Source: a virus | Virus record (IMG/VR): IMGVR_UViG_3300008113_000059 | Span: 1 to 64,000 of that record | Strand: one strand, 5' to 3' | Length of the DNA stretch: 64,000 bases | Shown: positions 6,430-44,808 of the stretch, piece by piece | Position numbering within the stretch: position 1 is the first letter of the stretch | How the letters are laid out: each line of letters opens with the position of its first letter | Translations under genes and position numbers: made by a program | The notes under the pieces: model-generated | Told to the model about the DNA's origin: nothing | What the model saw: the letters and a program-made list of their open reading frames with translations, nothing else | The model's database searches: none

Positions 6430-7415
6430 GAGCAATACACGTAAATTGGACCAAGCCATTTTTTCATAGGGATCGTTTAAGGGGACATGGATTTAACACA
6501 ACCAGAGAATTAAAATCTGAAACCTATGATCAACCTGACTATCAGATACTATACACCATGCTTTCAGCTATCCACTGGAAACGATTGAACGGACCTATTA
6601 AACTTTACACGGATTCTATTGGACTAGCATTTTATCAGCAATTCAGGATACCTGAACTTTATGATGATATTAATATTAATTTTTTAAACGGGTATTCAAG
6701 AACAGATGTCGATCCTGCACATTTTTGGACTAGCGGAAAAATAAAATGTTTAGCCAACCAGACATCACCATTTGTTTTTCTTGATCAGGATATGATAATT
6801 AGAAGTAAGCTTCCTGATGATATATTAAAATCGGATTTAACGGTTACTCACTGGGAAATACCTAGAGGATATTATTATTTTAGTGAGGATGATTGGAAAA
6901 AGGATATTTCACATATAGATTTTCCTCAAGGTTATCAGTGTTTTGATTGGTCTCCGAACACATCATTTCTAGTTTTTAATAATCTAAAGATATTAAGAGA
7001 GTATCACGATTGGCATAGAAAGTTGGTTGATACTAATGGCTCGGATACTCCCGAATGGTTTTGGCTTTTAACTGACCAAGGAATACTTGGACATATCATT
7101 AGACAGGGAGATTATAACACCAATACTTTAACAGATAAGATATATTTGGCCGATAGTAATTATGGTAGCGAATCTACCAGGTATAAGGGTCAGTCCGAAA
7201 ACTGGTATTATCCCATGAACCCTGACTATACCAAGGAGAATATAAGTTGGGAGCATGTCTGGATAGATAAAATTCATTATGGATGGCTTCCTGATTATAA
7301 AGAAAAACAAACGCAAAGATTTTTTGAAGAACTCATATTTTTGGGATATTCGGAATATCTAAGACATTCGAGATTTGTAAAATATTGGAATGAATACGGG
7401 AGTAAAAATAGTTAG
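6426..7415 (+). CDS. Putative nucleotide-diphospho-sugar transferase (GT-A fold, DUF6734-like)
   Basis: IKLYTD, FWTSGKIK, PFVFLDQD (DxD) and LTDQG motifs; ATGA overlap with the upstream gene. Confidence 0.65.
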   Translation: MRAIHVNWTKPFFHRDRLRGHGFNTTRELKSETYDQPDYQILYTMLSAIHWKRLNGPIKLYTDSIGLAFYQQFRIPELYDDININFLNGYSRTDVDPAHFWTSGKIKCLANQTSPFVFLDQDMIIRSKLPDDILKSDLTVTHWEIPRGYYYFSEDDWKKDISHIDFPQGYQCFDWSPNTSFLVFNNLKILREYHDWHRKLVDTNGSDTPEWFWLLTDQGILGHIIRQGDYNTNTLTDKIYLADSNYGSESTRYKGQSENWYYPMNPDYTKENISWEHVWIDKIHYGWLPDYKEKQTQRFFEELIFLGYSEYLRHSRFVKYWNEYGSKNS

Positions 7416-8157
7416 AGCATACTGGGGGGAAAGCGATAAACTCAAGAGAGAGATCCCACCGATTCCGATTTATCCAAATCAGATAGTTTTTGTTTGGGGT
7501 TCTGCAAACGAGTCTTTCTTAAGATCTAGAGGATTCGATACTTTTTTGATGTCTGATGATATTCCGGAGTTTTATCGTTCGTATAATGGACAATTCTATC
7601 GTAAATTATTAGCACTGGATATGGCATTGAGTATGTTTGATGAGGTGATTCTTCTGGATTGGGATTGCTATATATTAAGAGAATTTGATAACGATTTCTA
7701 CGAATTTCTTAGTGAAAAACCAATTCAATGTCCATTGTACGGTCAATATGAAAAAATAGAGGAGTCATGGAGGGAAGTATTACAGCCAGAGAATCCTAAT
7801 AAGGAGGGATGGTATTTAATATGCAACGATACCTTTCCCAAATACACATGGAAACTTGGAACAACATTAGTAAGTCCAAATTTCTGTTTTGTTTATAGCA
7901 GAGACCGGTCCTTGGGTAAGAATCTGATTGACATAGCAAATAAGCATAAATTATCCGGATGCATAGAGGAGCACGCAATGTATTTGTATGCTAATTGTTC
8001 TCTTGATGATTATATAGGGAGATATCATCCTAAATTTTTATACGGGGTTTCCGAGGATGAATCGGGGAGTGACTTTTTAGTAAATAAGTCACAGAAAATA
8101 GTAAATGAATATCTGGAGAATTCTATTAAAATGACACATTATCTTAAACACATATAA
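7390..8157 (+). CDS. Putative DxD glycosyltransferase-like protein
   Basis: RKLLAL...EVILLDWD (DxD), PNFCFVYSR and GCIEEHA motifs; clear paralogue of 8157..8921. Confidence 0.55.
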   Translation: MNTGVKIVRAYWGESDKLKREIPPIPIYPNQIVFVWGSANESFLRSRGFDTFLMSDDIPEFYRSYNGQFYRKLLALDMALSMFDEVILLDWDCYILREFDNDFYEFLSEKPIQCPLYGQYEKIEESWREVLQPENPNKEGWYLICNDTFPKYTWKLGTTLVSPNFCFVYSRDRSLGKNLIDIANKHKLSGCIEEHAMYLYANCSLDDYIGRYHPKFLYGVSEDESGSDFLVNKSQKIVNEYLENSIKMTHYLKHI

Positions 8158-8921
8158 TGAAATCTGATATAAAAATAATTAGAGCATATTGGGGTGATTC
8201 GGAGAAGCTCAAAAATGAAATCCCTCCCCTGCCTATATATGATAATCAGATTGTATACGTGTGGGGTGAGAATAACGATAAATTTTTAAGATCTAGAGGA
8301 TTTAAAACAAGAATAGTAACCGATGATGATCCTTGTAAAATAGACCATAAAAATTCATTGATCAGAAAACTTATAGCTATAAAAATGGCATTGGATGAAT
8401 TCCATGAGATAATGTTCATAGATTGGGATTGCTACATATTGAGGGAGCTGGATGACTCATTTTATAAGTACATCTCAGATAAACCCACTCAAATACCTCT
8501 GTATGCACACCTTAGTAATCCTATCGATGGTATAGAAGAGTTTTACGTTAACTGTGAGCCCGAGCATGTTGAATTTAAGAATGAAGCGAATAGATATATT
8601 CTGAAATATAGCTGGAAATCTGATGATATGTGCATTCTACCCAACTTTGGATTTTTTTATAGCAGGGAAATCTCGATAGGAAGAGAGCTTCTCAGAATAG
8701 CTGTAGAGAATGACCTTAAAGGATGTGCTGATGAGGCAGCTATGTTCATATATGCTAATTGTGATCTGGAGGAGTATATAAAGAGATATCACCCAATTTT
8801 CGTTAACGGTGTTTCTGATATTATGACTTCGACAAATTTTAAAATATCAGAAATACAGAAAAGATTTAATAGTAGAATTAAAGATGTTTTAAATATGGAT
8901 CCATATCTGGAACACATGTAA
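8157..8921 (+). CDS. Putative DxD glycosyltransferase-like protein
   Basis: RKLIAI...EIMFIDWD, PNFGFFYSR and GCADEAA motifs; paralogue of 7390..8157. Confidence 0.55.
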   Translation: MKSDIKIIRAYWGDSEKLKNEIPPLPIYDNQIVYVWGENNDKFLRSRGFKTRIVTDDDPCKIDHKNSLIRKLIAIKMALDEFHEIMFIDWDCYILRELDDSFYKYISDKPTQIPLYAHLSNPIDGIEEFYVNCEPEHVEFKNEANRYILKYSWKSDDMCILPNFGFFYSREISIGRELLRIAVENDLKGCADEAAMFIYANCDLEEYIKRYHPIFVNGVSDIMTSTNFKISEIQKRFNSRIKDVLNMDPYLEHM

Positions 8922-27777: not shown

Positions 27778-28332
27778 ATGGCAGGATTATCACATTTTCA
27801 AAATTCACTATCAGGAATAAACAAGTTTGAACCGGTTTATTTAAACCAGTTTGAGGTTACTATTATACCTCCTGCTGCTGTTGCTGGCGGTGAGATATTA
27901 CTACAGCACGTTAATAAAGTTTCCGGCCTTTCTTTGGATAAAAACCCTAGTGTTATAGCACAAAAGTATAAATTTGCTAAAAGAAACTATGCTGGTGCTA
28001 AACCTGAGAACACATATATGGACGTAAGTTTAAGTTTTAGTGTCAATCTTAATGACGTTAATTCAATGTATGTCTTTAAAACACTAAGACAATGGTCTGA
28101 TCTTATCTATAACCCATTAACGGGTGCAATGGGACTTAAAAACGATTATACGGGTACTATCGTAATATCAATCTTTAACAAACAAGGTGATGTATACAGA
28201 AGAATAACTTGTAGAGATTGTTTTCCTACTAAACCTATAACCGCTATGAATTTAAGCTACATGTCAACGGATCTATATAAAATTGATGATATGTCTTGGG
28301 CGGTTGATTACTGGGAAGATCTATTCTTATAA
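27778..28332 (+). CDS. gp19: Tail tube protein, copy 1
   Basis: Follows the sheath; LNQFEV, LRQWSDLIYNP, DCFP and terminal DYWEDLFL. Confidence 0.85.
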   Translation: MAGLSHFQNSLSGINKFEPVYLNQFEVTIIPPAAVAGGEILLQHVNKVSGLSLDKNPSVIAQKYKFAKRNYAGAKPENTYMDVSLSFSVNLNDVNSMYVFKTLRQWSDLIYNPLTGAMGLKNDYTGTIVISIFNKQGDVYRRITCRDCFPTKPITAMNLSYMSTDLYKIDDMSWAVDYWEDLFL

Positions 28333-28346
28333 AATAAAGAACAAAA

Positions 28347-28922
28347 ATGGCAGGATTACCACATTTTACAAACTCTAAAGCAGCGATAAACTACTATGAA
28401 CCGGTTTATTTGAACCAGTTCGAGGTGCTTATAAATCCACCATCGGGTATTGTTGATTCAGCTACCACATTTAAGGGTGAGAGTATACTAGCACAACAAG
28501 TTAAAGCTATAACTGGATTGGCAGTAGATATTGCTCCTGCTCAGACAGTTAATCAGCAATATAAATTTGCTACCAGAAGATATGCTGGAGGTGAGCCTTC
28601 TCAGAGTGATATGACACTTTCTATGGAATTTGAGGTTAACTTAAATGACGCTAATTCTATGTCTGTCTATAAAATTCTTAGACAGTGGTCCGATTTAATC
28701 TACAACCCACTTACTGGAGCGATGGGTATAAAATCTGACTATGTTGGATCTATGTCTATATCCATATTTAATAAAAGAGGTGATGTCTTTAGAAGAATAA
28801 GAATACCTTCTTGCTTCTTGAGTGAGCCTATAAATTCAATGGAACTTGATTATGAAACTCCGGCTATATACAGCATAAATGCTAGTTGGGTTTGTGATTA
28901 CTGGGAAGATCTATTCCTATAA
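28347..28922 (+). CDS. gp19: Tail tube protein, copy 2
   Basis: Close paralogue of 27778..28332 with the same EPVYLNQFEV, LRQWSDLIYNPLTGAMG and DYWEDLFL segments. Confidence 0.85.
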   Translation: MAGLPHFTNSKAAINYYEPVYLNQFEVLINPPSGIVDSATTFKGESILAQQVKAITGLAVDIAPAQTVNQQYKFATRRYAGGEPSQSDMTLSMEFEVNLNDANSMSVYKILRQWSDLIYNPLTGAMGIKSDYVGSMSISIFNKRGDVFRRIRIPSCFLSEPINSMELDYETPAIYSINASWVCDYWEDLFL

Positions 28923-36213: not shown

Positions 36214-36888
36214 GTGGCTGATAACAACATAGACATTAATGATTTTGACGGGGGTAGCTCGAATACAGGTAATGATACATTTTTTGTAGGCGGAAGTGCA
36301 GGATTTGCATTAGACCCTTTAGCTGGTTCGACTGGTGGATTTAATACTGAATATATTAATATTGCACAGCAGGTTGACGATCTAGCTAGGATAGAGGCTA
36401 CTTTTAAGAGATTTAATGATCCCACGGAATTAAGATTCATAAAGGAATCTTTCGATGTCGTAAAACAGGATAAAACACTTGATATACTGAATGTTGTTGA
36501 TTTCTTTCACCCACTGCAGAGCTTTTCCGATTATCAGAAACAAACTATGGTAATAGCACCAAGAGCATCAGCTAACCTTGATCCTTCATCGTTCGTAAAC
36601 ACAAATGGCGAGGTATCTATGATTATAGCTAGAGCATATTATCTCCCTGAAACCCCAGATGAAAGCAAAATACTATTTTGGGATTATAAAGGGACGGAAA
36701 GAAACATTATGGGTGAGCTTATGATTTTAACTGGAGCTATCAAGGAGGGTTACAATTGGAGAGGATGGGACGTGGATCCGTTTAGCACTTATGGTCACAC
36801 AGGAAATGCCAATAGCGCATTGGGTGGATTTATTTTTACTAATCCCACCGATTACAATGTAAAATTAACAGTAATAACAGCAAACTAA
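36214..36888 (+). CDS. Hypothetical late protein (paralogue A)
   Basis: Shares MGELMxLTG...GW...GGxxFxNP...VKL with the next ORF. Confidence 0.75.
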   Translation: MADNNIDINDFDGGSSNTGNDTFFVGGSAGFALDPLAGSTGGFNTEYINIAQQVDDLARIEATFKRFNDPTELRFIKESFDVVKQDKTLDILNVVDFFHPLQSFSDYQKQTMVIAPRASANLDPSSFVNTNGEVSMIIARAYYLPETPDESKILFWDYKGTERNIMGELMILTGAIKEGYNWRGWDVDPFSTYGHTGNANSALGGFIFTNPTDYNVKLTVITAN

Positions 36889-36889
36889 T

Positions 36890-37375
36890 ATGGCAACTCA
36901 ACCTATAAAATGTCCCTATGATTTACTGGAAGGATTCAGATTTTACAGAGGAAACCTTGTACTAGATAATGGTATGACAAATAATCCACAAGATTATCTG
37001 CTGATGAAGGATATCAAGATGAATATCGATAACTTTTCAAGAAGCAGAATAAGTCTAAAACCAGGAGCTTGTTTTCTTTTAAGCCAAACAGATATAGGGA
37101 ACAATCAGGGATATGTCTCTTTCATAGCTGTTAAAGCTGTATATCCTGATCTGACAGTAGAATCAAAAAAGTATATAAATTGGACATATCTTAATAATAC
37201 TAATTATATGGGCGAACTTATGGTTCTTACCGGACCAATGTTATCCTCAGTAAGCTCTACTCCTGAAGGCTGGAACTTATCCAAACCTAATGTTGTTTTT
37301 AATGACGGCGGAATGGTTTTTTGTAATCCTAGTGCTGATTTTACTGTCAAATTAGAAATATTGGTGTGCAAATAA
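36890..37375 (+). CDS. Hypothetical late protein (paralogue B)
   Basis: Paralogue of 36214..36888. Confidence 0.75.
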   Translation: MATQPIKCPYDLLEGFRFYRGNLVLDNGMTNNPQDYLLMKDIKMNIDNFSRSRISLKPGACFLLSQTDIGNNQGYVSFIAVKAVYPDLTVESKKYINWTYLNNTNYMGELMVLTGPMLSSVSSTPEGWNLSKPNVVFNDGGMVFCNPSADFTVKLEILVCK

Positions 37376-40946: not shown

Positions 40947-41548
40947 TGTATAACGATTTAGTATTAGAATACAAGAATGATCCCAAGAACACTGGAAATA
41001 TTTATAATATAACCAATGATTTTTTTCTTGGTAAGTATTTTAAAAACGACAATCCCGATAAAAAATTCCAACCACCATTCGTTCCCGGAGAGATATATTC
41101 CTTCAATTATCAGACAGACAGCAAAATAACCAAGAAAAGACCATTCATAGATAGAATGCCTTTGGTTGTTTGCACCGATGTATTTGAAACGAAAGAAACC
41201 GGACTTATATTGAAGGGTATAGATATAATAACAGTCCCGCCTAGAACAAGAGTTGATATCCTCGGTAGGATATATGACAATTTTACTGAGCAGATAAAGA
41301 GTAATGATGCTTCATATACCGGAGGTGGTTCAAGAACACCCATAAATTTAAAGGATAATGTTTTAAGCAATCTTCTTAGGAATACCGGATATGCTGAATC
41401 ATTGTTTGGTTTTAAGACAGGATTCGCAAGGAATGTAAAAATAATAGACTCCCTGGACTGGCCTAAAGTGCCATATCTGGCGGTAAATTTTATAGAGGGC
41501 TTGAATGTGCAGGAGATATATAAACAATATCAATCGAAATTAATTTAA
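40946..41548 (+). CDS. gp2: DNA end protector (T4 gp2-like)
   Basis: PGEIYSFNY...PFIDRMPLV...GIDI..VPPRTR resembles gp2; adjacent to gp4. Confidence 0.6.
   Translation: MYNDLVLEYKNDPKNTGNIYNITNDFFLGKYFKNDNPDKKFQPPFVPGEIYSFNYQTDSKITKKRPFIDRMPLVVCTDVFETKETGLILKGIDIITVPPRTRVDILGRIYDNFTEQIKSNDASYTGGGSRTPINLKDNVLSNLLRNTGYAESLFGFKTGFARNVKIIDSLDWPKVPYLAVNFIEGLNVQEIYKQYQSKLI
41515..41522 (+). promoter_or_regulatory. Putative late promoter GATATATA for the portal operon
   Basis: Within the 3' end of the gp2-like gene, 60 nt before ATG 41583. Confidence 0.6.
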
Positions 41549-41582: not shown

Positions 41583-43196
41583 ATGGCTGGTTTTGTAGAA
41601 AATAATAACACATCACAGACTCCTGTAATACAGAGGATCAGAGATTCCGTAAGGAAACTTAGTACCTTTGGTATGAAGTATGATGACATGGTTATCCGTA
41701 ATTCACAAGCAGTTGGTGTTACAGAGGCAGCTTTCTTAAATAAGAATAAATCTAATGTCGAGGACGAGAGCATGCTATGGACTCTTGCCAAGCAGGATAT
41801 ATCATCCCGACAATTTATAGGATATTTTGATAAGGACTACAAGGGGAAAAGAGATTTTCTTAGAAAGTTTTCGCTTAATCCCGAGATAGAGTGGGTTTTA
41901 GATACCGTTTGTGATGAGGCTATTTCTTATGATCCATCAAACTTTTTTGCTTATCCAGATTTTATAGATCTTAGTGATATTAACGATAAGCTTAAAGAGG
42001 ATTTGTATGACACCTATAAGACATTATACGACACATGGGGATTTTCTGATGATATTACTGCATGGCAATATTTTAGACAATTTATAATAGATGGATTTTT
42101 AGCATTCGAGATAATCTACGACGATAAGGGACAGAATATAATAGGATTCAAAGAGCTTGATGCTATTACACTTATTCCTAGCGTCGAGAAACAGATAGAC
42201 GGTAGCTTCATGAGTACATGGACACAATACCCTCAAGATCCTAAAAAGAAAAGAGTACTTTACGAACCTCAGATCATTTACATCTCCTATGCTAAGGGTA
42301 ATTCAATTTCAAGGATAAGTTACATTGAGAGATTAATAAGGCCGTATAACATCCTTAGAATAATGGAATACACCAGAGTTATCTGGTCTGTTATGAATGC
42401 TTCATTTAAACTTAAGATGACAGTTCCTATCGGATCTAAATCTCAACAAAAAGGTATGCAGACTCTAGGTGAGTTAATGAGTATCTACAAGGAGGACATT
42501 GAGCTTAATGATGAAAGCGGTGAATTAACAATAGACGGAAGACCTAAGATTCAGTTTTATAAGAATTATTTAATGCCATCGGGTGTAAATGGAACACCTA
42601 CTATAGAACCAATAACAACCGATGGACCTAACCTAAATGATCCGCAGCCACTAGCTTATTTCTTTGATAAATTTATACTGGAATCTAAAGTTCCTCCATC
42701 AAGATTTCATAATCCTGATGGAGGTAGCACATCTCCATATTCGAATGGTGCTGAAGGATTGGATAAGGAGGAAATAAGATTCTCCAAATTTATATCTAGA
42801 TTAAGATCAGTTTTCCAGGAGATAATGATTAAACCGCTTTGGATACAGATGGCAAAGAAATATCCCAAATTGGAAGACGACTTTATGTTTAAGAGCCAAT
42901 TGGGGCTAGATTATTTTTCTGATAACCCATTCAAACTTAACCAGGAAATGGATATGATGAATAAGAGGAAAGAAGGTATAGCAGCGATGGGTGGATTAGT
43001 CGGTGACGAAGAAAAACCATATTTTTCTAATGCTTTCCTTATCGAGACATTTCTTGGTATGTCTAAACAGGATATAGATGCTAATAAAGAAGCTATCGAA
43101 AGAAAGGAAAAGGAGAAGAAGAAAAAGGAGGAAGAAAAAGGCAAAGAAGGCGGAGAGAAAAAAGAGGGTGAAGAAGCACCCGAAGTAACACTATAA
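41583..43196 (+). CDS. gp20: Portal vertex protein, copy 1
   Basis: PEIEWVLDTVCDEAI, FRQFIIDG, SYIERLIRPYNILRIME, VPPSRF, EEIRFSKFISRLRSVF. Confidence 0.92.
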   Translation: MAGFVENNNTSQTPVIQRIRDSVRKLSTFGMKYDDMVIRNSQAVGVTEAAFLNKNKSNVEDESMLWTLAKQDISSRQFIGYFDKDYKGKRDFLRKFSLNPEIEWVLDTVCDEAISYDPSNFFAYPDFIDLSDINDKLKEDLYDTYKTLYDTWGFSDDITAWQYFRQFIIDGFLAFEIIYDDKGQNIIGFKELDAITLIPSVEKQIDGSFMSTWTQYPQDPKKKRVLYEPQIIYISYAKGNSISRISYIERLIRPYNILRIMEYTRVIWSVMNASFKLKMTVPIGSKSQQKGMQTLGELMSIYKEDIELNDESGELTIDGRPKIQFYKNYLMPSGVNGTPTIEPITTDGPNLNDPQPLAYFFDKFILESKVPPSRFHNPDGGSTSPYSNGAEGLDKEEIRFSKFISRLRSVFQEIMIKPLWIQMAKKYPKLEDDFMFKSQLGLDYFSDNPFKLNQEMDMMNKRKEGIAAMGGLVGDEEKPYFSNAFLIETFLGMSKQDIDANKEAIERKEKEKKKKEEEKGKEGGEKKEGEEAPEVTL

Positions 43197-43200
43197 TAAG

Positions 43201-44808
43201 ATGGCAGGATTTTTAGATTTTTTAAAACCGAATCAATCTGCACTGGGTAACATATTAAAAAACCTAGGCAACATATCAAAATTTGGTATGCAGTATGATG
43301 ATATGGTTGTGCGAAACTCACAAGCCATTGGTAAGACTGAGGGATTTTTCTATAATCAGGATGGGAACGGATTTACTGAGAATGATGCATTTTATTGGAC
43401 AGCTTCATATCAGGACACAAAGGTAAGAAAATACATTGCTTATTTCGATAGGGATTATATTGATAAAAGAAACTATCTGAGAAAGTTTTCACTAAACGGT
43501 GAGATTGAATTTATACTTGATACCATTACTGATGAGGCAATTACTTACGATGATAGAAACTACTTTGCTCAGCCTTCATTTATAAATATAGATCTTAAAG
43601 ATAAGATCAAGGATAAGATGGCTTCCCATTATAATAGGCTTTATAATGTTTTTGGATTTCAGAATACTGTATTAGCCTGGCAATACTTCAGACAATTTCT
43701 GATAGATGGATTTCTTGCATTTGAATTAATATATGATAATAAGGGTAAAGAAATTATAGGATTTAAAGAATTGGATCCGGGATCGCTTCAGCCAGTTGTT
43801 GAAAAGGTTGGTGAAAATGAACACAGACAGTTTTGGATACAATATCCGAAGAATCCACAAATGACAAGAAAGCTTACTAATGAACAGGTTATCTACATAT
43901 CATATGCCAAGGGAAATAGTATATCTAGAGTAAGCTATATAGAAAGACTTGTTAGATCATATAATATATTAAGAATAATGGAGAATTCCAGGGTGATCTG
44001 GAACGTTATGAATGCTTCATATAGATTGAAATTCATCATACCCATTGGGACTCAGTCTCCACAAAAGGCAATGCAGACTCTTGGACAACTAATGTCAAAT
44101 TATAAGGAGGATATTAATATTAATGATAACTCTGGTGAATTAACAGTAAATGGTAGGCCGAAGGTTCAATTTTACAAGAATTATCTATTCCCTGAAAAGG
44201 ATGGTGTATCTCCAGAAATATCTTCACTTAATTCGAGCGGTCCTGATTTCAATGTGATGGAGAATGTTTTATATTTCTTCAATAAATTAAAAATGGATTC
44301 AAAGATACCGTACGCTAGATTTGCATCAAAAAGTGGAACTCCTGCAACATATCAGATAAGTATAGATCAGCTAGAAAGAGACGAGATCAGGTTTGAAAAG
44401 TTTCTAAGAAGATTAAGATCAATATTTCAGGAGATCCTTGTAAAACCACTTTACATTCAGATGTGTTTAGACAATCCCGAGCTATCAAGAGACAAGAGTT
44501 TTAAAGCCAATATTGGACTTAATTATCACAGGGATAGCGAATTTGAAGAAATGGTTGAGATGTCAGGATATGCTAAAAGGAGCGAATTTATTAAAGGTCT
44601 AGAGGAACTAAAGGTAAAAGTTGGTGAGGAAGACAAAGCTTACTTCGATCCTGATTTCCTAGTTCAGAGATTTCTTGGGCTTAATCCCGACCAGATTAAG
44701 ATGAACGAGAAATATAAGGAGAAAGAAGCTAAGGCAGCTGCGCCAGCTGAGGGAGAAGCTGCTGCACCAGCAGAAGGCGAAGAAAAAGCTCCTGAAGTAA
44801 CACTATAA
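43201..44808 (+). CDS. gp20: Portal vertex protein, copy 2
   Basis: GEIEFILDTITDEAI, FRQFLIDG, SYIERLVRSYNILRIME, IPYARF, DEIRFEKFLRRLRSIF. Confidence 0.92.
   Translation: MAGFLDFLKPNQSALGNILKNLGNISKFGMQYDDMVVRNSQAIGKTEGFFYNQDGNGFTENDAFYWTASYQDTKVRKYIAYFDRDYIDKRNYLRKFSLNGEIEFILDTITDEAITYDDRNYFAQPSFINIDLKDKIKDKMASHYNRLYNVFGFQNTVLAWQYFRQFLIDGFLAFELIYDNKGKEIIGFKELDPGSLQPVVEKVGENEHRQFWIQYPKNPQMTRKLTNEQVIYISYAKGNSISRVSYIERLVRSYNILRIMENSRVIWNVMNASYRLKFIIPIGTQSPQKAMQTLGQLMSNYKEDININDNSGELTVNGRPKVQFYKNYLFPEKDGVSPEISSLNSSGPDFNVMENVLYFFNKLKMDSKIPYARFASKSGTPATYQISIDQLERDEIRFEKFLRRLRSIFQEILVKPLYIQMCLDNPELSRDKSFKANIGLNYHRDSEFEEMVEMSGYAKRSEFIKGLEELKVKVGEEDKAYFDPDFLVQRFLGLNPDQIKMNEKYKEKEAKAAAPAEGEAAAPAEGEEKAPEVTL

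Follow-up and report, generated by a model that had tools for sequence, protein, structure and literature searches.

Two conserved tandem gp20-type portal genes in a clade of jumbo phages, possibly encoding one mixed portal ring

To our knowledge, every tailed-phage portal that has been studied structurally is the product of a single gene and forms a homo-dodecamer. Positions 1 to 64,000 of IMG/VR virus record IMGVR_UViG_3300008113_000059 (the window, throughout) raise the question of why a phage should keep two adjacent portal genes, here called A and B. The window takes in the first 64 kb of a viral contig of 91.8 kb, which CheckV estimates to be ~32% complete, and the phage is therefore a T4-like jumbo phage. 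The original prediction, made from the sequence alone, described two intact tandem portal genes that share a C-terminal peptide, and proposed either a hetero-dodecamer or two specialised portals. We found both genes to encode genuine portal subunits that are conserved as a pair, and from comparisons of their sequences we see an even chance that a single portal ring is assembled from A and B together.

Gene A (41583..43196) encodes a protein of 537 residues and gene B (43201..44808) one of 535; both lie on the plus strand, as do all the portal elements located below. The open reading frames (ORFs) thus confirmed the prediction of two intact genes 4 nt apart. The spacer, TAAG (43197..43200), follows the stop codon of A and precedes the start codon of B (TAA TAAG ATG), an arrangement that would imply co-transcription and probably coupled translation. 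Fusion of the two proteins through read-through or frameshifting was ruled out by the double stop and by the location of B in another frame. A and B are 51% identical across 505 residues. Both matched PF07230 (Portal_T4; cut-off 22.9 bits) nearly end to end, A with 194 bits (E 4e-57, profile positions 9-432 of 433) and B with 229 bits (E 1e-67, positions 4-433 of 433), and both matched PHROG 213 (portal), so that the description of the two as paralogues that have diverged yet retain the portal motifs was borne out. AlphaFold2 monomer models of moderate confidence were obtained (predicted local distance difference test, pLDDT, 74 for A and 72 for B). The top Foldseek matches of both models were T4 gp20 chains 9MKB, 6UZC, 9LU7 and 3JA7, with E values of 1e-19 to 1e-22, a probability of 1.00 and template modelling (TM) scores of about 0.5-0.65. 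We conclude that A and B are genuine T4-gp20-type portal subunits, the match being far above chance. By homology, A and B would be expected to form a dodecameric ring at one capsid vertex.

Is the pair a peculiarity of this contig? A search of IMG/VR with portal B gave 142 related loci, of which the best 80 were taken (group 1), and a deeper group, reached via the representative P0123, gave 184, of which again the best 80 were taken (group 2). In group 1, an intact orthologue of A lay directly before an intact orthologue of B in all 78 loci with upstream DNA; in group 2 the tandem pair was present in 80 of 80 loci and intact in 79. The sole broken pair among these ~158 loci (L126, 1527-3164) has its first copy broken into two ORFs (332 and 212 aa), which, on a contig of 5 kb, could be a frameshift or an assembly error. 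The usual state of one portal gene per genome was thus found neither in the window nor in the ~158 related loci. Far from being absent or decaying in relatives, a case that the original prediction had considered, the second copy forms part of an intact pair in essentially all of them. Group 1 orthologues are 65-99% (A) and 67-98% (B) identical to those of the window, A and B always being about 50% identical to each other, and orthologues from the two groups are only about 52% identical. The contigs of the clade belong to uncultured jumbo phages and reach 434 kb.

In a maximum-likelihood tree of the portal core, from which the C-terminal tails had been removed, the first copies of both groups formed one lineage (A; support 100/99) and the second copies another (B; 98/89), and A and B together were separated from the single-copy relatives with a support of 99/99. 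The A and B subtrees mirror each other, and the stems that follow the duplication measure about 0.29 and 0.32. Judged from this tree, the pair is the outcome of a single ancient tandem duplication at the base of the clade, followed by co-descent with the gene order fixed. Horizontal gain of a second portal was ruled out, as A and B are each other's closest relatives and their trees are mirrored.

The nearest deposited portals, at 30-44% identity, are those of LR756500, LR756501-4, LR745206, the Lak phages and Tenacibaculum phage PTm1. A deposited-phage collection gave gp20-type matches in 2250 records, at 2252 places, and a second place was listed only for LR756501 and LR756503. LR756500 has one portal; LR756501 has one portal and a crown-like fragment. 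The fragment (LR756501.1, 15166-15351, minus strand; L169) is an ORF of 101 aa that matches only positions 374-431 of the gp20 profile, the crown end (E 2e-5), and lies far from the single portal gene of that 735-kb phage. The near-outgroup loci of the P0124 type, L164 and L165, are cut by contig ends and give no portal copy number. An A-type cluster that is 82% identical (P0013) carries the NCBI label of a Chitinophagia bacterium metagenome-assembled genome; the label could be a hint of the host or reflect a mis-binned phage contig.

Both copies are under strong and similar constraint. Where synonymous divergence (dS) was unsaturated, the ratio of nonsynonymous to synonymous divergence (dN/dS) was 0.011-0.029 for A and 0.006-0.028 for B, and dN was nearly equal for the two within the same genome pairs; across relatives, therefore, dN/dS, which the original prediction had singled out as informative, gave two equally strongly constrained copies and no decay. 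Columns conserved at 90% or more in both deep groups numbered 209 of 527 in A and 195 of 527 in B. Both paralogues have kept 184 of the 285 columns that are conserved in 13 single-copy outgroups, and a consistent loss confined to one copy is seen at only 7 of the 285 (4 for B, 3 for A). The identity between A and B is highest in the stem (63%), followed by the clip (58%), the wing (53-57%), the N-terminus (45%), the tunnel loop (36%) and the crown (30%). This order tracks the general conservation profile and equals the divergence of orthologues between the groups; therefore, no domain has been specifically remodelled in one copy. Long retention, purifying selection and reciprocal losses are the combination by which both subunits are judged indispensable. 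A decaying copy or pseudogene, and a decoy in an arms race, were ruled out by the symmetric constraint, the low dN/dS and the reciprocity of the losses.

These data bear on two explanations in which the pair would not work as two equal portal subunits. It is highly improbable that the two genes are functionally redundant and have been kept for dosage or by chance. Tandem duplicates need not be lost at once, and extra DNA is tolerated by jumbo phages, but this pair has persisted to about 50% paralogue divergence across two deep groups, with no loss in about 158 loci and with strong purifying selection on both members; moreover, dosage is an implausible driver, since a virion needs only 12 portal subunits. 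It also seems improbable, if less so, that one copy is the virion portal and the other an assembly-only or non-structural protein, for example one that chaperones initiation, anchors the scaffold core, plugs the channel or serves as a decoy for host defences that sense portals. Portal proteins do trigger some host defence sensors, and in most genomes the tails of the two copies differ in linker chemistry and terminal motif; both points speak for this explanation. A further point in its favour is that portal initiation in T4 needs an accessory factor, gp40 (PMC9958956). Against this, A and B are constrained alike in each domain, with no exception for the clip or the elements that line the channel; the stems (0.29, 0.32), dN and dN/dS are equal, and the losses of ancestral residues are reciprocal (4 vs 3) and not one-sided. 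A repurposed copy or decoy should show relaxed or shifted constraint, or an arms race, and a dN/dS of about 0.01-0.03 argues otherwise. Both explanations thus fit the selection data poorly.

Are the two subunits made together? An octamer resembling a late promoter, GATATATA, lies 60 nt 5' of A (41515..41522, plus strand). The motif occurs 13 times in the window. All copies are on the plus strand, and most precede a late structural gene (those for the sheath and the protease-scaffold among them) by 20-35 nt; the sites include 19174, 24348, 37427, 41515, 50297, 53086, 56733 and 60505. The count is only mildly above that in shuffled sequences (mean 7.6); the bias in strand and position is striking, and we infer that GATATATA is a candidate late-promoter core. 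A motif scan of the window found no copy of it between A and B, and the gap between the genes is 1-23 nt in relatives of group 1 and 2-11 nt in those of group 2. Because GATATATA is found before A and not before B, the two genes look like one late transcription unit and would be co-expressed. When a gene for the subunit of a homo-oligomer is duplicated and both copies are expressed together, the products start out co-assembling, and this default favours a mixed ring of A and B.

The co-expression of the genes also bears on the alternative that A and B form two separate homo-dodecameric portals, which might equip two kinds of virions, serve at other times, under other conditions or in other hosts, or provide a second ring in the same particle. 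Both proteins keep the clip helix, which contacts the terminase and the neck, the wing, the N-whisker and the tunnel loop, so that each could suffice alone, and there was no loss of self-compatibility in anything tested. We nevertheless regard separate portals as unlikely. The genes form one tight operon in which B has no promoter of its own, and there is no obvious differential use; the specificity of the subunit interfaces would have to evolve from default co-assembly, and no sign of this was seen. Two portals in one particle are unlikely in any case, as assembly of a T4-type capsid starts from one portal initiator per head (PMC9958956).

Where A and B differ is consistent with co-assembly into one mixed ring. 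Five of the seven sites of reciprocal loss fall in two short elements that line the channel, as these elements are defined in the T4 portal (PMC4493910): the inner clip loop (B 330, 332 and 335, about T4 336-341) and the channel loop at the start of stem helix alpha-7 (B 352 and 354, about T4 359-361). As aligned to the outgroups, the inner clip loop corresponds to residues 331-338 of A (M-P-S-G-V-N-G-T; 42573..42596), about T4 336-343 at the channel entrance, and to residues 330-337 of B (F-P-E-K-D-G-V-S; 44188..44211). A has kept the ancestral M/I/L and S in this loop and lost the ancestral G; B has kept the G (G335, found in 13 of 13 outgroups), and F330 and E/Q332 replace the ancestral residues. 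The alignment places the channel loop and the start of the stem helix at residues 353-355 of A (42639..42647) and 352-354 of B (44254..44262). Here the outgroups have S-D-T-(D/E); A has only the first acidic residue (D353, 99%), and B has V/I at the first acidic site and retains the second (D/E354, 98%).

The tunnel loops differ in charge. Domain boundaries were transferred from T4 to A and B, and the limits of the tunnel loop, taken from T4 374-398, are approximate: about residues 368-393 in A (42684..42761) and 367-391 in B (44299..44373). The loop of A carries a net charge of 0 to -1 and that of B one of +2 to +3, with no overlap in either deep group, and the outgroup mean is about -0.2; R/K377 is present in 100% of the B lineage. 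In T4, neighbouring tunnel loops touch, and deletion of the loop disturbs the 12-mer stoichiometry (PMC4493910). Charge complementarity between A and B in the tunnel loop is, on these alignments, only suggestive. The net charge of the wing also differs in group 1 (A -8 vs B -1) and slightly in group 2 (-6 vs -5), but A is more negative than B in no more than 82 of 100 genomes and we did not rely on this asymmetry. Divergence of A and B has not fallen on the partner-binding surfaces, which would be expected to change if the two formed separate portals.

The termini of the two proteins had also attracted attention in the original prediction. Both do begin with MAGF and end in APEVTL, and the last 15 nt of the genes are identical (gaa gta aca cta taa). 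By translation, the hexapeptide is encoded at 43176..43193 in A, after a K/E-rich linker, and at 44788..44805 in B, after a linker rich in A/P/E/G. The linkers (43100-43175 vs 44730-44787) differ also in predicted structure, a helix continuing in the model of A (H495-520) and the linker of B being predicted as disordered. MAGF, common to both copies as had been said, does not set the pair apart: it is present in LR756500 and in most single-copy representatives of the wider protein library, and is ancestral to the wider single-copy family. In that wider, mostly single-copy family (P0123-P0199; L083:6001-7683), MAGF is strongly conserved, and many single-copy portals have a low-complexity, acidic/Gly-rich tail whose last residue is hydrophobic or aromatic (...GGFAL, ...SEFGL, ...DDF, ...GGW).

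An ending of the form [VIFLM][TKSNE][LIFV]-COOH was found on at least one copy in 91 of 95 distinct tail pairs, and the other 4 still have a hydrophobic final residue. Both copies carry the motif in 32 pairs; in 13 pairs copy 2 alone has it, and in 46 copy 1 alone. The 32 and the 13 all belong to group 1, together with 2 pairs in which the motif is limited to copy 1; in group 2 it is confined to copy 1 in 44 of 46 pairs, and the tail of copy 2 is long and rich in A/P/E/T. When both copies carry the motif, agreement over the last six residues is higher within a genome (4.78) than with shuffled partners (3.88; 0 of 5000 shuffles), the genomes in this test being related and not independent. Codon identity at identical residues is 0.57 within genomes vs 0.49 +/- 0.04 between them (33 of 3000 shuffles), and in a few lineages (L049, L050 and L054) the upstream part of the tail is also common to both copies at the nucleotide level. 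Synonymous codons at the terminal residues vary freely across relatives; what is constrained is therefore the peptide, not a DNA signal that overlaps it. This free variation ruled out a shared 3' end acting as DNA, for example as a promoter overlapping ...ACACTATAA. Gene conversion, evident in L049, L050 and L054, was ruled out as the sole origin of the shared peptide by the codon identities. On these figures, the identical 15 nt owe more to selection on the peptide and to codon bias than to any DNA element, with a modest share for gene conversion.

The idea of a conserved terminal peptide therefore stands in that the ending is selected as a peptide, but APEVTL on both copies is specific to a subclade and not fixed in the pair. 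In T4, the portal nucleates the scaffolding core within the head, which is also where the crown lies and, with it, the tail (PMC9958956). Because the crown and tail lie in the head where the scaffolding core nucleates, the C-terminal motif looks like an ancestral inward-facing anchor that would be needed on at least one type of subunit. A motif that switches paralogue from clade to clade would be easier to explain if both tails were in one assembly, and its movement between paralogues counts against two separate portals.

Two further observations concern the coupling of A to B and of the portal to the tail. Across 41 distinct genomes, the pairwise distances of A and B were correlated with r = 0.972, and the partial correlation of A and B given three neighbouring genes was 0.72, the partials of other pairs ranging from -0.04 to 0.37. 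The tail-tube gene is also doubled: directly after the sheath gene lie a gene for a tube protein of 184 aa (27778..28332, plus strand; PHROGs 3629/4542 and phrog_32623) and one of 191 aa (28347..28922, plus strand). The pair was recognised by self-comparison of the contig, and both members match tail-tube PHROGs. The two are 56% identical. Two tandem tube genes were found in three two-portal genomes, of 270 kb (99% complete), 430 kb (with terminal repeats) and 219 kb, which represent both deep groups; single-portal LR756500 and LR756501 have one tube gene. That the doubling of the tube co-occurs with that of the portal suggests a move to two-subunit rings throughout the conduit.

How might such a ring be built? 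Most plausibly, A and B would alternate in an A6B6 dodecamer, and the DNA channel would then have 6-fold and no longer 12-fold symmetry. The reciprocal differences that hold across the lineages are few and fall mainly on the channel lining (the inner clip loop, the channel loop and the charge of the tunnel loop), and the outer surfaces that bind the capsid, the terminase and the neck stay alike in A and B. The flexible C-terminal tails would face the head interior, and at least one type of subunit would have to end in a hydrophobic Phi-x-Phi-COOH anchor, as both do in the subclade of the window (APEVTL); the anchor would dock probably to the scaffolding core or to another internal partner. The tail tube, which continues the same conduit, appears to have doubled on the same branch. 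A mixed ring is favoured because of the tight operon, the symmetric constraint, the reciprocal changes in the channel lining and the opposite charges of the tunnel loops, and because the tail motif may be on either copy, the rates covary and the tube has doubled in parallel. In T4, identical gp20 subunits occupy non-equivalent environments and morph locally toward the 5-fold capsid (PMC7136217), and a ring of two subunits would hard-wire such non-equivalence.

Several points weigh against this interpretation. The clip helix and the wing are alike in A and B, and two separate homo-dodecamers would fit this just as well. The fixed differences between A and B are few and chemically mild, and that the seven sites cluster on the channel is a post hoc observation and suggestive only. 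High covariation of rates is expected for any paralogues that share a fold and constraints. The step from 12 to 6 is made in T4 by the gp13 12-mer and the gp14 6-mer, not by the portal (PMC12929587), and known architecture therefore does not require a 6-fold portal. The gp20-type search of the deposited-phage collection found no cultured member of the clade. The mixed ring can be taken further, to a portal in which A and B obligately alternate (A6B6), and which would be the first heteromeric one known in any tailed virus, with a 6-fold channel of alternating charge and a tube of two alternating paralogues, the conduit having been re-engineered by paired duplications on one branch; we consider this full picture tentative, and its chance to be a little short of even.

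The surroundings of the pair are those expected of a T4-type portal, namely late structural genes. On its 5' side lie genes for a late sigma factor resembling gp55, a head-closure protein resembling gp4 and a DNA-end protector resembling gp2, and on its 3' side those for an unassigned protein (phrog_8133), a DNA ligase and a clamp loader. The large terminase subunit TerL (22478), the sheath (24385), the protease-scaffold (56766) and the major capsid protein (58741) are each encoded once in the contig. The order neck-like genes (16343, 19201 and 21694), TerL, sheath, tube, tube resembles that of T4 genes 13-19, and the portal pair sits 13 kb beyond this block, amid replication genes. Two other tandem pairs of paralogues were seen in the window. 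The members of one (7390-8157 and 8157-8921; 255 and 254 aa) are 45% identical, have overlapping stop and start codons and lie in a block that had been named a sugar-tailoring cassette in the original prediction. The other is weak (36214-36888 and 36890-37375; 31% identity over 113 aa, E 2e-9, no PHROG match) and sits between replication-type genes and the gene of a 793-aa late protein.

Set beside known systems, A and B share the family and fold of T4 gp20 (PF07230; 3JA7, 6UZC, 9MKB, 9LU6/9LU7), the order of domains (N-whisker, wing, stem, clip, tunnel loop, crown) and a place amid late genes (terminase, sheath, tube, head-closure and protease-scaffold). The identity to T4 gp20 is only about 17-22% in structural alignments; the T4 ring is made from one gene product, whereas the phage of the window has two conserved paralogues, whose low-complexity tails of about 25-60 aa have a hydrophobic end, as against 8 disordered terminal residues in T4 (PMC4493910). 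The single-portal huge phages (LR756500, 462 kb; LR756501-4 and LR745206, 635-735 kb; the Prevotella Lak phages; Tenacibaculum PTm1) are jumbo phages of the same wider lineage and probably infect Bacteroidota. LR756500 has the MAGF N-terminus in common with A and B; its portal ends in ...TTSGY and is followed directly by the protease/scaffold and major capsid protein genes. Unlike the window, with its doubled genes, LR756500 and LR756501 each have a single portal gene and a single gene for the tail tube.

Duplicated structural genes are known from other assemblies. In T4, gp23 and gp24, the major capsid protein and its vertex paralogue, stem from such a duplication, and both have been kept and fill non-equivalent positions of one symmetric assembly, a likeness to A and B; gp23 and gp24, however, occupy distinct lattice positions (hexamers vs pentameric vertices), whereas A and B would take places within a single 12-mer ring. 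Rings of paralogues also arose by duplication of homo-oligomer subunits in the fungal V-ATPase proteolipid ring, the proteasome and CCT. These too are co-expressed ring duplicates, in which complementary losses (in the portal pair, 4 in B and 3 in A) can make both copies indispensable; the reciprocal sites of A and B differ in that they line the channel and are not at known subunit interfaces. The tail-tube protein pb6 of phage T5 has a fused internal duplication and forms trimeric, pseudo-hexameric rings, a precedent for a tube ring of two related modules as might be made from the tube genes at 27778 and 28347, although the T5 modules are fused in one chain and the window phage has two separate genes. 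We found no publication on tandem portal paralogues or on a two-gene or heteromeric portal; our coverage of the literature was incomplete and such absence is unproven.

No machine of tailed phages and herpesviruses is more conserved than the portal, and a two-gene portal is spread, stably inherited, over hundreds of environmental jumbo-phage contigs. Portal counts, used as a single-copy marker of phage diversity and of genome completeness, would be doubled in this clade. If A and B do form one alternating ring, the symmetry of the packaging and ejection channel would be 6-fold instead of the assumed 12-fold. In phages of the clade, the portal should be reconstructed from cryo-electron microscopy data without imposed C12 symmetry. 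The hydrophobic anchor, with its mobility between the two C-termini, offers a testable handle on the contact of the portal with the head interior. With an alternating ring, the clade would be a natural experiment on how symmetry mismatches are handled at the portal vertex, and a clean viral example of a homomeric ring that has been made dependent on two paralogues.

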